Shown: piece by piece, positions 4,908 to 12,652 of the stretch
Layout of the letters: each line of letters starts with the position of its first letter
How positions within the stretch are numbered: position 1 is the stretch's first letter
Virus record (IMG/VR): IMGVR_UViG_3300048033_001096
Location: 96,001-160,000 of that record
Source of the DNA: a virus
Length of the DNA stretch: 64,000 nucleotides
Direction: 5' to 3' (one strand)
Translations under genes and position numbers: made by a program
Notes under the pieces: generated by a model
What the model was told of the DNA's origin: nothing
Seen by the model: only the letters and a program-made list of their open reading frames with translations
Database searches by the model: none

Positions 4908-6665
4908 TTGAGTTGGAAAAAATATTTTACACCAGTGAGTTCTGAAAACTCAGTTAACGGAACATATGGTCCAATAAATGGATCTGCTGCCGGTGCTCGC
5001 CCAGGACCTGCTAGGTCAAACTATTCAAGTTACTTACCAGATGTTTATGTAGGTAGTCCAAACCGTGTTGAGCGTTACGGCCAATACAATACAATGGATC
5101 AAGATTCAGAAGTAAATGCTGCATTAGATATTCTTGCAGAATTTTGTACACAAAAGAATGACGAAAACGGCACAAACTTTAAATTTAATTTTTTTAAAAA
5201 AGCTACAAATACAGAAGTAACTATATTAGGTCAATACTTAAAGCAATGGTGCAAAACACAGAAGTTTGAAACACGAATGTTTCGTATTTTTAGAAATGTA
5301 TTCAAATACGGAGACGCAATTTTTGTAAGAGACCCAGAAACTAAAAAATTATATCATGTTGATCCTGCAAAACTTAAACGTATTATTGTAAACGAAAGTG
5401 AAGGCAAGCAACCTGAGCAATATATTATACAAGATTTTAATTTAAATTTTAGAGAAATGGTTGCAACTACTCCGTTTCAGACTACTGGAAATATTACTGG
5501 CGGCGGAAATCCTAATACTGGATATTTTACTGGCAGCGGCAGAGGAATGGTAGGACAACCAAATCAGGGTCTTAATGGATCAAGATTTAATGTTGAAGAA
5601 GGTGAAGTAGCAATCAATGCAGAACATGTTGTACACCTAAGTTTAAGTGAGGGATTAGATCAAAACTATCCATTTGGACAAAGTTTGTTAGAATCAATCT
5701 TTAAAGTATACAAACAAAAAGAATTACTTGAAGATGCTATTATCATCTATCGAGTACAACGAGCGCCAGAGCGCAGAGTATTCTACGTTGATGTGGGTAA
5801 CATGCCAAGTCACTTGGCTATGCAATTTGTAGAACGTGTTAAGACGGAAATACATCAAAGACGTATCCCATCGTCAACAGGTGGAGGCCAAAATGTTATA
5901 GACAGCTCTTACAATCCTCTGTCAATCAACGAAGACTACTTCTTTCCACAAACTGCTGAAGGTAGAGGATCAAAAGTTGAAACACTACCAGGCGGTACTA
6001 ACTTAGGTGAAATTGACGACTTAAGATACTTTACAAATAAACTTGTGCGTGGCTTACGTATTCCAAGTTCGTACCTACCAACTGGAGCAGATGATGGTGC
6101 TTCTTCATTCCAAGATGGACGAGTTGGTACTGCTTACATTCAAGAACTGAGATTTAATAACTACTGCGAAAGACTACAAGGATTAATTACAGAAGAATTT
6201 AATCAAGATTTTAAACGGTATTTGTTAGAAAATGGAGTAAATATTGACACAGCGATGTTTGATTTAGAATTTCAAGCACCTCAAAACTTTGCTGCTTATA
6301 GACAATCGGAACTAGACAACGCTCGTGTGCCAACATTTACACAAATGAGTGCTATTCCGTATATGTCAAATCGTTTTGCACTAAAACGTTTCTTAGGAAT
6401 GAGTGCAGAAGAAATTGCAGAAAACGAACGTATGTGGCGTGAAGAAAATGACGAAACTCTAGAACAGCCTGATACAGATAGTTCAGGTGAAATGAGAACA
6501 GCTGGAATTAGCAGTTCCGGAATTGGTGCAGATCTTGGAGGTATTGAAGATGTTGCAGACGACGGTCCTGCTCCAGAAGACGGAGGCGAAGGCGCACCTC
6601 CAGAAACAGCAACTGACGCAACCTTAGGTGCAACTCCTCCTCCGGCGAACGATCAGACAATATAA
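4908..6665 (+). CDS. Portal vertex protein (T4 gp20-like)
   Basis: LLEDAIIIYRVQRAPERRVFYVDVGNMP, EDYFFP and TLPGGTNLGEIDDLRYF are gp20 signatures; TTG start after AGGAG. Confidence 0.95.
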   Translation: MSWKKYFTPVSSENSVNGTYGPINGSAAGARPGPARSNYSSYLPDVYVGSPNRVERYGQYNTMDQDSEVNAALDILAEFCTQKNDENGTNFKFNFFKKATNTEVTILGQYLKQWCKTQKFETRMFRIFRNVFKYGDAIFVRDPETKKLYHVDPAKLKRIIVNESEGKQPEQYIIQDFNLNFREMVATTPFQTTGNITGGGNPNTGYFTGSGRGMVGQPNQGLNGSRFNVEEGEVAINAEHVVHLSLSEGLDQNYPFGQSLLESIFKVYKQKELLEDAIIIYRVQRAPERRVFYVDVGNMPSHLAMQFVERVKTEIHQRRIPSSTGGGQNVIDSSYNPLSINEDYFFPQTAEGRGSKVETLPGGTNLGEIDDLRYFTNKLVRGLRIPSSYLPTGADDGASSFQDGRVGTAYIQELRFNNYCERLQGLITEEFNQDFKRYLLENGVNIDTAMFDLEFQAPQNFAAYRQSELDNARVPTFTQMSAIPYMSNRFALKRFLGMSAEEIAENERMWREENDETLEQPDTDSSGEMRTAGISSSGIGADLGGIEDVADDGPAPEDGGEGAPPETATDATLGATPPPANDQTI

Positions 6666-9434: not shown

Positions 9435-10538
9435 ATGTTGGATGCACTAAAAACACTTTTTGAAAACGATGTAGTTTCCGAAGAAGTGCGCCACGAAATC
9501 GAAGAAGCGTGGGAATCGAAGATTAAAGAAAATCGTCGAGCTGCTACTGCTGAGCTTCGTGAAGAATTTGCTAAGAAGTATGAGCACGATAAAGCAACTA
9601 TGGTAGAGTCAATTGATAAACTACTAGAAGAGCGTCTTGCTTCAGAAATTCAAGAATTTGCAGAAGATCGTAATCAACTAGCTGAAGCAAAAGCGAAGTA
9701 TGCTGTTGCGCAACGTGAAAATGCAAAATTAATGAAAAACTTTGTTTTAGAATCACTAAAGAAAGAAGTTAGCGAATTACACGAAGATCAAAAAGCAGCA
9801 GCAACAAAATTTTCACAGCTTGAAGAATTTGTGGTAGAAGCACTTGCTAAAGAAATTGCAGAGTTCTACGAAGATAAAAAAGACTTAGCTGAAACAAAGG
9901 TAAAACTTGTACGTGAAGCTAAAGACAAATTTGCAGAAGTTCAAAAGACTTTTGTACAAAAAAGTGCCGCATTAGTATCCGAAACAGTTGGTAAAAATCT
10001 TAACAAAGAAATGAAACAACTTAAAGAAGATATTGAATCAGCACGTAAAAACGACTTTGGTCGTAAACTATTCGAAGCATTTGCTTCAGAATATGCTAAC
10101 AGCTACTTAAACGAAAAATCAGAAACTGCTAAACTTATGAAAGTGCTTGCACTTAAAGATCAGCAAGTTAATGAGGCAAAAGCGTTAGCTGTTAAGGCTA
10201 AGACTCTAGCAGAGACAGCTGCTTCTGAAAAGAAAGCACTAGTTGAATCGGCTAGAAGAGAAAAGAAATTACACGATTTAGTTTCACCGTTAGGTAAAGC
10301 TCAGCGTGATATAATGACAGACTTACTGGAAAGCGTACAGACTGATAGACTTCAGTCATCGTTTGACAAGTATCTACCAGCAGTTATTGATGGTAACACT
10401 CCAGCTAAGAAGAAGGCAGTTTTAGCAGAAGGCAAAGAAGTTACAGGCAACCGCGAAGAATCTTCGCAAACTAACGTTAGTTCAAAAGCAGGCGTAGACG
10501 GCAATGTCGTTGACATTAAACGTCTAGCTGGATTATAA
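9435..10538 (+). CDS. Prohead core scaffolding protein (T4 gp22-like)
   Basis: Coiled-coil Glu/Lys-rich protein between protease and capsid; ATG 9435 fits the SD spacing better than 9429. Confidence 0.85.
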   Translation: MLDALKTLFENDVVSEEVRHEIEEAWESKIKENRRAATAELREEFAKKYEHDKATMVESIDKLLEERLASEIQEFAEDRNQLAEAKAKYAVAQRENAKLMKNFVLESLKKEVSELHEDQKAAATKFSQLEEFVVEALAKEIAEFYEDKKDLAETKVKLVREAKDKFAEVQKTFVQKSAALVSETVGKNLNKEMKQLKEDIESARKNDFGRKLFEAFASEYANSYLNEKSETAKLMKVLALKDQQVNEAKALAVKAKTLAETAASEKKALVESARREKKLHDLVSPLGKAQRDIMTDLLESVQTDRLQSSFDKYLPAVIDGNTPAKKKAVLAEGKEVTGNREESSQTNVSSKAGVDGNVVDIKRLAGL

Positions 10539-10554
10539 TATAGGAGAAATCAAA

Positions 10555-11733
10555 ATGTCAGAACTATTAGAAAGTCGCTGGCAGGACACTAAAACTGCAC
10601 TTGTAGAAGGTCTTAAAGGCAACAAGAAAGCTGTTATGGAAGCGACACTAGAAAATACTCGCAGGTATTTAAGTGAAACTGCAACAGCTGGTGCAACTTC
10701 TGCAGGTAACGTAGCTACACTTAACCGTGTTATCCTACCAGTTATCAGACGTGTAATGCCAACAGTGATCGCAAACGAGTTGGTTGGTGTTCAGCCAATG
10801 ACAGGCCCAGTGGGTCAAATTCACACACTAAGAGTACGTTATAGTGACGCATTCGACAGCACAAACGGTACAGACGTAGCTGCTGGCGAAGAAGCACTAT
10901 CACCATTCAAAATTGCTGAAGGTTATTCAGGGGACGCTGCTACTGATCGTGCATCAGCTACAGCATCGCTTGAAGGACAAGCAGGCAATAGAATGTCAAT
11001 CCAGATCTTGAAACAGACTGTAGAAGCTAAAACACGCAAACTAAGCGCACGTTGGACCTTCGAAGCTGCTCAAGATGCACAATCGCAGCATGGTATTGAC
11101 GTAGAAGCAGAAATCATGGCAGCACTTGCTCAAGAGATTACTGCTGAAATCGACCAAGAAGTTCTTGGTTCATTAGCTTCACTAGCAGGTAATGCTACTG
11201 AAACATACGATCAAGCAGCCGTATCAGGTACTGCTACTTTCGTTGGTGATGAGCATGCTGCACTAGCAGTACAAATCAACCGCGTAAGTAACTTGATTGC
11301 ACAGCGTACACGTAGAGGCGCAGGTAACTGGGCAGTGGTATCACCATTTGCACTAACTATCCTACAGTCAGCAACTACATCAGCGTTCGCTCGTACAACA
11401 GAAGGTACGTTTGAAGCACCAACTAACACTAAAATGGTTGGTACACTAAACAACGCAATGAAAGTATATGTTAACACATATGCAAACGATGCGTCACCAA
11501 TTCTTATTGGTTACAAAGGTTCAAGTGAATCAGATGCAGCGGCATTCTACTGCCCATACATCCCACTAATGAGCTCAGGCGTTGTACTAGATCCAAGCAC
11601 ATTCGAGCCAACAGTTTCGTTCATGACACGTTATGGATATGTTGAGCTAACGAATACTGCTTCGTCTCTAGGTAACGCAGCTGATTACCTAGGTAAAGTT
11701 GCTATTACTAACGGTAACGTTAGCTTTAGCTAA
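10555..11733 (+). CDS. Major capsid protein (T4 gp23-like)
   Basis: VIRRVMPTVIANELVGVQPMTGPVGQIH, VEAKTRKLSARWT, FYCPYIPL and FMTRYG; likely maturation site YLSE/T. Confidence 0.97.
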   Translation: MSELLESRWQDTKTALVEGLKGNKKAVMEATLENTRRYLSETATAGATSAGNVATLNRVILPVIRRVMPTVIANELVGVQPMTGPVGQIHTLRVRYSDAFDSTNGTDVAAGEEALSPFKIAEGYSGDAATDRASATASLEGQAGNRMSIQILKQTVEAKTRKLSARWTFEAAQDAQSQHGIDVEAEIMAALAQEITAEIDQEVLGSLASLAGNATETYDQAAVSGTATFVGDEHAALAVQINRVSNLIAQRTRRGAGNWAVVSPFALTILQSATTSAFARTTEGTFEAPTNTKMVGTLNNAMKVYVNTYANDASPILIGYKGSSESDAAAFYCPYIPLMSSGVVLDPSTFEPTVSFMTRYGYVELTNTASSLGNAADYLGKVAITNGNVSFS

Positions 11734-11754: not shown

Positions 11755-11783
11755 AAAAAAGGCGGCTTATGTCGCCTTTTTTT
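11755..11783 (+). terminator. Intrinsic (bidirectional) terminator after the capsid gene
   Basis: AAAAAA-GGCGGC-TTAT-GTCGCC-TTTTTTT. Confidence 0.9.
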
Positions 11784-11805
11784 ATGACTTTTTTTAAAAA
11801 AGTGG

Positions 11806-11833
11806 TTGACTTTTATTGTAGTGATGCTATATT
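11806..11833 (+). promoter_or_regulatory. Sigma70-type promoter driving the ncRNA
   Basis: TTGACT-16 nt-TATATT with extended TGn; same layout as 59487-59514. Confidence 0.75.
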
Positions 11834-11837
11834 AATA

Positions 11838-12044
11838 ATATAACAAGACGTTGTTATATGGGTTGGCGCTAATAATTTCCGCTCTAGAGGAGATAAGCGC
11901 ACTTGGTTAGGGGTAGTGCCCGGCGTAGAGTTTGGAGACAAGCAGTACGCACACTGCGATACTAAGCAGAACTGAGGTTCTAGGCGATAGATGAAACGGT
12001 ATCTGGACGCTTAGTTGGAGGTAAACCCAAGTCCTTCACCCACC
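11838..12044 (+). ncRNA. Putative highly structured non-coding RNA (~200 nt), family not recognised
   Basis: GC-richer island with no credible ORF, bounded by its own promoter and terminator; at least 7 helices, GAGA tetraloop, 5'/3' end pairing, pseudoknot ACTTGG/CCAAGT. Confidence 0.75.
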
Positions 12045-12052
12045 TTTATTAT

Positions 12053-12087
12053 AAAGCCCGATGCTTAACTGTGTCGGGCTTTTTCTT
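12053..12087 (+). terminator. Intrinsic terminator of the ncRNA unit
   Basis: AAAGCCCGATGC-TTAACT-GTGTCGGGCTTT plus T tract. Confidence 0.88.
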
Positions 12088-12092
12088 TATTT

Positions 12093-12196
12093 GATAAATA
12101 CTATTGTCAGATAGTGTGCCGCAAGGCGGACTTATGCTGTACCCACAGCGTAGCTCATAGAACGGGCATAGGACTACTTTTTATAGGAGAAAACAA
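12093..12196 (+). promoter_or_regulatory. Late promoter plus structured 5' leader
   Basis: GATAAATA 12093-12100; hairpins GCC-GCAA-GGC, TATGCTGT-ACCC-ACAGCGTA, GCTC-7nt-GGGC, closed by TAGT/ACTA before the SD. Confidence 0.65.
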
Positions 12197-12652
12197 ATGG
12201 GAAGACCACTCAATAAAAGATATTTCGGAACGCCAACAGCCGGCGGCAACGAAATTAAAGTACAGTTTTGGAACGGAACTGCATCAGTAAACGGCTGGAT
12301 TGTAAAGCAACTTGGAAGTAAAAAGTTTCGTTGCACAGACGGCACAGAAGTAGTAGATTGCTACCTAAGTACAAAAGCATCAGCTGACTTAGACGGTTCG
12401 CATGCTACAGTACCTAGTTTAGCTGAAATGTCTATTACAGTTAAAGACGACGGAGGCACTGCACAGCAAGTAACTAAAATTTCAGGACGCAAAGTAACAC
12501 TTGAAGACGGTACAGTGATCCAGTGGAACTTCAGTGATGCTACAGATGATGGCGCAGTTGAAATGGAAGAAGCAGGCGATGATGCAGTTATGGATAACGA
12601 CGATCTTGCACCAGATGCAGATGACTTCGAGTCAGACGATCCAACGGATTAA
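12197..12652 (+). CDS. Virion protein downstream of the capsid gene (possible head decoration)
   Basis: 151 aa, strong SD, own late promoter and terminator, acidic C-terminal tail. Confidence 0.65.
   Translation: MGRPLNKRYFGTPTAGGNEIKVQFWNGTASVNGWIVKQLGSKKFRCTDGTEVVDCYLSTKASADLDGSHATVPSLAEMSITVKDDGGTAQQVTKISGRKVTLEDGTVIQWNFSDATDDGAVEMEEAGDDAVMDNDDLAPDADDFESDDPTD

Follow-up and report, generated by a model that had tools for sequence, protein, structure and literature searches.

The manA RNA was first described as a riboswitch candidate (Weinberg et al., 2010; PMC2864571), in sequences from marine metagenomes, T4-like cyanophages, and two gamma-proteobacteria. In that study the motif was found “commonly in potential 5' UTRs” of mannose/fructose, nucleotide-synthesis, ibpA, and photosynthesis genes, and was rated “cis-regulatory: Y, riboswitch: y.” A different side of the family appears in a 2026 cryo-EM preprint (10.64898/2026.07.01.735769), which reports that manA RNAs form closed homo-oligomers in vitro, including octamers, decamers, and a 60-subunit icosahedral-like cage. 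These assemblies are built from pentamers and held together by kissing loops (L5-L7', L8-L9' or L3-L8') along with a GNRA-receptor contact, and the L5-L7' kissing loop is intermolecular in the pentamers; its authors continue to describe manA as a putative cis-regulatory element. The motif has been an orphan “riboswitch candidate” since 2010.

Two other phage-associated RNAs, GOLLD and ROOL, often occur near tRNAs (PMC5737381) and are reported to form RNA-only assemblies (10.1101/2024.12.08.627333). They resemble the manA element described here in their association with phages, in often adjoining or being co-transcribed with tRNAs, and in being free-standing genes instead of leaders; the RNA-only multimers reported for them also have a parallel in the oligomerization reported for the manA family. 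However, they share no sequence or structural homology with manA, are much longer (∼580–800 nt vs. ∼200 nt), and come from different taxa. At the level of genome organization, a close comparison is with phage “morons,” which are independent promoter-gene-terminator inserts between conserved genes.

The DNA analyzed here (64,000 nucleotides, hereafter the window) comes from a viral contig of 169 kb in IMG/VR, with a CheckV completeness estimate of 46%. The source of the element is an uncultured jumbo myovirus, whose capsid gene has ∼66–69% nucleotide identity to the major head genes of the jumbo phages PA5oct, GAP32, and XaC1. When the whole window was compared with Rfam (cmscan), two matches exceeded their gathering scores, manA (RF01745) and the freshwater-2 motif (RF02980). 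The manA match spans the complete model (1–192 of 192), scores 85.7 bits where 55.2 is the gathering threshold (E 1.9e-20), occurs on the plus strand only, and is the only copy on the contig. The element downstream of the capsid gene is therefore a member of the known manA family. The initial annotation, made from the sequence alone, did not recognize the family, although it listed manA among the Rfam candidates and stated that a strong hit to a known family would remove the novelty; by that measure, the finding is not the discovery of a new RNA class. The features of the locus are collected in Table 1.

Table 1. Features of the manA locus and its neighbors (positions within the window).
Feature	Position	Strand	Evidence and remarks
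Major capsid (head) protein gene	10555..11733	+	PHROG phrog_138 major head protein, E 1.6e-99; directly upstream of the manA unit
Intrinsic terminator of the capsid gene	11755..11790	+	Terminator scan; 12-bp stem 11755-11782 and T-run
Sigma70-type promoter (predicted)	11806..11833	+	-35 TTGACT 11806-11811; extended -10 TGc-TATATT 11825-11833; 10/12 matches, TG present
manA RNA, 207 nt	11841..12047	+	Rfam RF01745; pair list; covariation; MFE
manA 5' hairpin	11841-56	+	Rfam consensus
manA closing stem TGGGT/ACCCA	11859-63/12038-42	+	Rfam consensus
manA stem-loop	11866-11900	+	Rfam consensus
manA junction stem	11903-08/11970-75	+	Rfam consensus
manA L5 hairpin	11910-21	+	Rfam consensus
L5 loop UAGUG	11914..11918	+	Candidate kissing-loop contact with the complementary L7 loop UACUA (11960-11964)
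manA GNRA-capped hairpin	11922-51	+	Rfam consensus; GAGA 11935-38
manA L7 hairpin	11954-69	+	Rfam consensus
manA long hairpin	11979-12015	+	Rfam consensus
manA 3' hairpin	12017-37	+	Rfam consensus
Intrinsic terminator of the manA unit	12053..12092	+	Terminator scan, MFE; 12-bp stem 12053-12082, -18.5 kcal/mol, T-rich run
T4-late-promoter-like GATAAATA box, serving the next gene	12093..12100	+	Kept directly 3' of the terminator in relatives
Freshwater-2 RNA motif (RF02980), 5' leader of the next gene	12115..12199	+	Rfam, 68.6 bits vs. cut-off 49.9; ends in RBS and ATG
151-aa ORF (next gene), family unknown	12197..12652	+	ORF list

Several properties are shared with the manA RNAs of marine samples and cyanophages: the multi-helix architecture with covariation and a full-length match above the gathering score, the conserved loops (L5 GUAGUG/GUGGUG, and a 3' hairpin with ..AGUCC), and a near-consensus sigma70 promoter that starts at the motif. 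The window copy differs from these classic members in its host, which belongs to an uncultured jumbo myovirus clade with a capsid nearest to PA5oct/Rak2-like phages and is not a cyanomyovirus. It also has a longer GNRA-capped hairpin than the Rfam model, and in this clade manA never directly precedes an ORF. The sequence itself has diverged beyond blastn recognition: positions 11780–12200 found no match among 50,697 cultured-phage records, and close relatives of the locus come from IMG/VR only.

The element is a structured plus-strand RNA, well beyond what chance would give, as the initial annotation had proposed. The predicted transcript (11840–12090) folds at -89 kcal/mol (z = -4.2), with none of 200 shuffled sequences as good, and the opposite strand at -62 kcal/mol (z = -1.1). 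Unconstrained MFE prediction reproduces the Rfam manA architecture together with a separate terminator hairpin. No credible ORF is present, also in line with the earlier reading: in the window ORF list no plus-strand ORF of at least 30 aa overlaps the element, and the sole overlapping ORF of that size is a 42-aa frame on the minus strand that begins with TTG.

Most of the helices drawn by hand in the initial annotation are recovered both in the Rfam consensus and in the MFE structure, including the 5' hairpin, the closing TGGGT/ACCCA stem, GCGCT..ATTTCC/GGAGAT..AGCGC, the GCGTA/TACGC stem with its tandem GA/AG and GTTTG-GAGA-CAAGC, and GGAGG/CCTTC of the 3' hairpin. Other proposed pairings fared less well. 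ACTAAGC/GCTTAGT is not conserved (50–69% of cells paired), and the family instead pairs CTAGGC (11980–85) with GCTTAG (12009–14). GTAGTG/CACTGC is not supported and competes with a covarying complementarity between the L5 and L7 loops, although the two use the same L5 bases and pair counts alone cannot separate them. The long-range pseudoknot ACTTGG/CCAAGT is paired in 76% of cells with almost no covariation, its positions being mostly invariant or unpaired.

Relatives of the locus were gathered via the capsid protein, giving 80 IMG/VR loci with 83–94% amino-acid identity. With the Rfam model, full-length manA was detected in 15 of 50 relatives' records, five of them above the cut-off and ten below it, and a clade-specific covariance model located 25 copies in 81 sources, some of which had been missed by the Rfam pre-filter. 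The Rfam manA model thus under-detects the jumbo-phage subtypes. The clade-specific model (R1), derived from a MAFFT alignment, was dropped: it mis-registered the other subtypes and left the closing stem only 37% paired. Its replacement (R2) was built from copies of the window's own subtype on the unaltered Rfam structure, and is the basis of an alignment of 15 clade copies (A4).

In this alignment, which is fitted to the structure, 89.8% of cells are paired and 45 of the 54 pairs have substitutions in both partners; the structure is reproduced independently by the MFE. The covariation score of A4 is 0.69, compared with at most 0.114 for slid controls, and none of 500 shuffles scored as high. 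Covariation thus supports the consensus helices within the clade, and the GNRA-capped extension covaries as well.

In the window, the manA fold is flanked by elements that would make it a transcription unit of its own. The initial annotation had described a non-late sigma70 promoter and terminators on both sides, and each of these is found: the promoter has the arrangement TTGACT-16-TGcTATATT with a predicted start near 11840, and the stems of both terminators are followed by T-runs (Table 1). The generality of this layout was examined in 21 distinct complete manA copies from relatives whose capsid proteins are 83–94% identical. All 21 have a sigma70 promoter scoring 9–11 of 12 (with TGn in 20), and its -10 hexamer ends 7–17 nt before the motif in every copy. 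A terminator follows 4–11 nt after the motif in 19 of the 21, at -9.8 to -18.5 kcal/mol. The terminator stems have several unrelated sequences among the copies (GCCCGA.., GGTCTGC.., GGACC.., GACGC.., and GCTCTAGC..), which indicates that the function is conserved and not the sequence. In one relative (L039), a late-like box and a tiny ORF precede the terminator after manA. In another (L051), manA (5289–5493) is followed 5 nt later by tRNA-Gly(UCC) (5499–5573; ARAGORN) and then by a terminator, a predicted RNA-only operon. A pairing between the 5' and 3' transcript ends was also considered and rejected as a general feature, since it occurs only in subtype B (ATAAGCAA/TTGCTTAT, five loci) and is absent in the window.

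The gene that follows appears to be served separately. A conserved TTTGATAAATAC box lies immediately 3' of the manA terminator, and in relatives without manA a late-type box lies directly 3' of the capsid terminator, which itself is found at the matching position in the relatives inspected. Boxes of the form (G/T)ATAAATA are located 5–50 nt upstream of many ORFs in the source genome, and T4-type late promoters occupy similar positions upstream of genes. The 151-aa ORF has no PHROG or Pfam match, and its homologues stand behind the same late box in relatives both with and without manA. With its own late-type box and its freshwater-2 leader, this gene would have a promoter and a leader independent of manA.

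The presence of a dedicated promoter and terminator, in this phage and in its relatives, points to an RNA gene and not to a switch for the neighboring gene. On the best reading of these signals, the predicted transcript is a separate RNA of ∼250 nt with no coding sequence attached. Early expression, as proposed by the initial annotation, is suggested by the promoter type only; the literature search yielded no usable cyanophage transcriptome data on manA. A further sigma70 consensus (12/12, at 10510–10539), located before the capsid gene, is probably fortuitous because its start would fall inside the Shine-Dalgarno sequence, and it is unusable as an argument about promoter timing.

The manA unit is an optional part of this region. 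Among 45 relatives with at least 1.1 kb of sequence downstream of the capsid gene, 17 carry the cassette. In all of these manA keeps to the same strand, at a distance of 107 to ∼1000 nt from the capsid stop. In about ten relatives without manA, the capsid terminator leads straight to the late box, and in others the slot is taken by small protein-coding inserts preceded by a TAAATA-type box of their own, including a ∼95-aa ORF family and an IscU-like ORF (in L018). As the cassette is optional and is replaced by alternative inserts, the slot is a hypervariable insertion site in which the manA unit behaves like an RNA “moron.” The likeness to morons lies in the promoter (21/21 copies), the terminator (19/21), and the variable presence among syntenic relatives in a hypervariable intergenic slot; the difference is in the cargo, a structured RNA and not a protein-coding gene.

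Cultured cyanophages provide a comparison outside of the jumbo clade, with manA coordinates taken from Table S7 of PMC9964418 and confirmed with Rfam. The layout of P-HM1 (gp23, terminator, TTGACA-N17-TATAAT, manA, terminator) is identical to that of the window. In S-SSM7, a consensus promoter and manA are followed by a tRNA-Gly that starts at the next base, and in S-CREM1 a tRNA/wcaG/abiF array contains manA, with tRNA-Leu on one side and tRNA-Asn on the other. P-SSM4 has a consensus promoter, manA, and a weak hairpin; in P-SSM2, which also has a consensus promoter, manA lies 16 nt before the purL ATG.

An independent sample of 80 marine-type manA loci was also analyzed, 77 of which were scored for a promoter and 70 for 3' context. 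A promoter with at least 10 of 12 matches at a fixed distance is present in 67 of the 77 loci, compared with 8 of 362 control windows. The 3' contexts are more varied: ∼24 of the 70 loci have a terminator-like hairpin with a T-run, and in ∼40 there is an ORF within 60 nt and no detectable terminator. In four, a tRNA-Asn occurs within ∼25 nt of manA. The ORFs that follow marine manA are heterogeneous, encoding gp32, transaldolase, phosphomannomutase, PurS, mannose-6-P isomerase, and 2OG oxygenase. Because ∼40/70 marine loci run into an ORF, a free-standing arrangement was rejected as a general claim for the family. The case for it is strong for the jumbo clade and several cyanophages and does not extend to every member, and the marine copies that run into ORFs may yet have a cis role.

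Taken together, these features suggest that the window encodes a manA member which a host-type promoter probably expresses as a discrete ∼250-nt RNA, with constitutive termination, and which would act in trans, plausibly as a self-assembling particle. A host-type (sigma70) RNA polymerase would start at ∼11840, transcribe the 207-nt manA fold, and stop at the strong intrinsic terminator. The whole promoter-RNA-terminator cassette behaves like a “moron” inserted into the hypervariable slot that separates the capsid gene from the late gene downstream. The RNA itself would most likely act in trans as a stable structured particle, and, given the reported cryo-EM behavior of the family, it probably self-associates via loop-loop contacts (e.g., L5-L7) into closed homo-oligomers.

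An alternative is that manA is a transcriptional riboswitch or attenuator, in which a metabolite or factor is recognized by the fold, with the terminator at 12053–12092 serving as expression platform. Read-through from the sigma70 promoter would then be gated, giving the 151-aa gene an early, conditional expression besides that from its late promoter. A promoter, an aptamer, and a terminator make up the classic layout of a transcriptional riboswitch, and the promoter that starts exactly at the motif, with the terminator close behind, has this typical form. The alternative keeps some weight because of this layout and because many marine copies lie 15–60 nt before an ORF (e.g., 16 nt before purL in P-SSM2); the rating given by Weinberg et al. 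(2010; PMC2864571) also favors it. The terminators, however, are complete, strong hairpins 4–11 nt beyond the closing stem with no overlap, and no anti-terminator pairing is conserved across the subtypes of the 21 related copies. Duplex energies between the terminator arms and manA resemble those of shuffled arms. The window's own subtype is an exception in favor of a switch: its 3' arm pairs somewhat better with the manA body than shuffled controls do (-17.8 vs. -12.7 kcal/mol). Placement as a 5' leader is not what is seen here: manA is separated from the next ORF by a strong terminator, the GATAAATA box, and a leader motif distinct from manA, and this downstream gene has its own late-type promoter and persists unaltered where relatives lack manA. 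The gene after manA is a tRNA in L051, in S-SSM7, and in four marine loci, and in S-CREM1 tRNAs occur on both sides. The heterogeneity of the genes after marine manA likewise argues against a switch. To our knowledge, the formation of closed homo-oligomers is not a known property of riboswitches, and none of the manA literature searched reports a ligand. On balance, we regard a riboswitch at this locus as unlikely.

The position next to the capsid gene raises another explanation, that manA is a cis-acting 3' element for the stability or processing of the capsid mRNA, or is placed there through a role in capsid assembly. In the jumbo clade manA does follow the major capsid gene, and it follows gp23 in P-HM1 and in four to five further marine loci with divergent gp23. 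The strong terminator between the capsid gene and manA, the separate manA promoter, and the distance from the capsid stop, which varies from 107 to ∼1000 nt with other inserts between, make this quite improbable, as does the absence of manA from more than half of the close relatives. The idea that manA is always located after a capsid gene was rejected, since this is the case in only 4 of the 70 marine loci with enough upstream sequence. The initial annotation had favored a new RNA class, perhaps a tRNA mimic, ribozyme, or protein sponge, a reading largely refuted by the match to manA and to which we now give next to no weight. The 3' hairpin does stack on the closing stem in a manner loosely reminiscent of a T-arm and acceptor minihelix, and since several phages have manA copies adjacent to tRNAs, the two might conceivably be processed by the same tRNA-maturation enzymes. 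Against a tRNA mimic, ARAGORN predicts no tRNA genes in the window, an Rfam scan with E up to 10 gives neither RF00005 nor any tRNA-like match over the element, and direct reading of the 3' hairpin shows an 11-nt loop without the T-loop signature. The ..ACCCACC end that had been likened to an acceptor is not conserved, with ..CTATCA.. or ..CTATTTTGC.. in relatives. The same permissive scan matched no known ribozyme family, and no repeated short protein-binding motif of the kind expected of a sponge was noticed in an unsystematic look.

For the preferred reading of a trans-acting RNA, the loops bear on assembly. The complementarity between L5 and L7 is paired in 88% of cells and involves a swap from A-U to G-C between subtypes (UGGUA/UACCG in subtype B). 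We infer that it corresponds both to the pseudoknot marked “?” in 2010 and to the L5-L7' kissing loop of the preprint, whose loop numbers were mapped onto the window by helix order, itself an inferred correspondence. Because this loop complementarity covaries, self-assembly of the window RNA is plausible. The window variant shares with the cryo-EM assemblies its family, the covarying L5-L7 complementarity, and a GNRA loop where the preprint describes an L6 GNRA-receptor contact; it differs in that the oligomers were reported for other family members, and the window variant is known from sequence alone.

The locus and its relatives provide clear-cut genomic evidence for a discrete RNA product in at least one branch of manA. 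What is added to the earlier descriptions is a conserved free-standing cassette that has been quantified, its status as an optional insert, the predicted manA-tRNA-Gly operon of L051, the covariation of L5 with L7, and the under-detection by Rfam. A promoter of its own, combined with a terminator or a tRNA neighbor, would meet the needs of a trans-acting, self-assembling RNA and is hard to square with a cis switch. Cultured systems for testing these ideas include P-HM1, whose layout matches that of the window, as well as two phages with manA directly beside tRNAs, S-SSM7 and S-CREM1. More tentatively, and with rather more doubt than for this locus, manA RNAs across the family may not be riboswitches but autonomous phage RNA genes, expressed from dedicated strong host-type promoters or within tRNA operons and yielding a trans-acting, self-assembling RNA particle. 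If so, the marine copies in front of ORFs would reflect insertion of the cassette without a terminator and not regulation, and the particle (a pentamer, decamer, or cage) could, for instance, provide a scaffold or a sequestering compartment during infection.

Among the clade copies of manA found with the Rfam model, 10 of 15 score below the gathering cut-off of the family (36.6-53.8 bits), and three copies (L017, L039, and L079) were wholly missed by the first-look filter; the Rfam manA model therefore under-represents the jumbo-phage subtypes. In subtype B, a manA subtype of the clade other than that of the window, a stem forms between the transcript's predicted 5' end (AUAAGCAA) and its 3' end immediately upstream of the terminator (UUGCUUAU), and this terminal stem takes the place of the local 5' hairpin that characterizes the window's own subtype. 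Directly 3' of marine-type manA, several loci share a conserved hairpin (AGACCTAAGATGCAACTC...GGGCAGATGGTCT), some 40 nt long, with a T-run behind it. Its conservation exceeds what a plain terminator needs, and it may represent either a motif not yet catalogued or a part of manA that extends the known fold. In three cultured cyanophages, annotated "hypothetical protein" genes overlap manA, and these are probably spurious gene calls.

The region 3' of the capsid terminator is a hypervariable slot among the relatives of the window, where the alternative inserts are an IscU/NifU-like ORF, a secreted-looking ORF, or members of a conserved ORF family of roughly 95 aa, each preceded by a TAAATA-type box of its own. 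A conserved, late-promoter-like TTTGATAAATAC box lies upstream of the freshwater-2 leader, and the combination of box, leader, and 151-aa ORF occurs in both manA-bearing and manA-less relatives. On the other side of the capsid gene, a perfect sigma70 consensus precedes the start codon. The start site that it implies would lie within the Shine-Dalgarno sequence, and the match is therefore probably fortuitous.

Features at and around manA. L-numbers are loci: L082 and L084-L086 are the cultured cyanophages named, L096-L164 come from an independent sample of marine-type manA, and the others are IMG/VR relatives gathered via the capsid protein.
Feature	Location	Remark
Sigma70 consensus, 12/12 (TTGACA-18-TATAAT)	window 10510-10539	ends 15 nt upstream of capsid ATG
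Freshwater-2 RNA motif, leader of 151-aa ORF	within window 12093-12199	RF02980, 68.6 bits
IscU/NifU-like ORF, slot insert	L018:3694-4310	judged by eye from N-terminus
Secreted-looking ORF, slot insert	L006:3556-4170	
Other slot inserts directly 3' of capsid gene	L038, L045, L064, L066, L067, L070, L074, L076	
Sub-cut-off manA scores	L004, L013, L023, L024, L027, L031, L046, L058, L069	among others
Subtype B terminal stem	L004, L014, L044, L059, L081	
Conserved 3' hairpin	L096, L098, L103, L107, L122, L128, L129, L132, L134, L149, L152, L154, L159, L164	9-55 nt after manA
CDS PSSM4_169.1	L084:1085-1258	P-SSM4
CDS PHM1_121	L085:1006-1182	P-HM1
CDS SSSM7_180	L086:1142-1273	S-SSM7
manA + tRNA-Gly(UCC)	L051:5289-5640	same orientation, 5 nt apart
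wcaG "riboswitch candidate"	L082:1246-1462 (S-CREM1 9745-9961)	inside tRNA array

In one clade member (L051), manA and a tRNA-Gly(UCC) have a single promoter and a single terminator in common, and the pair is an RNA-only operon. The wcaG of S-CREM1 is followed 47 nt downstream by a tRNA-Met and by no protein gene; given this position within a tRNA array, the question of a free-standing RNA arises for wcaG as it does for manA.
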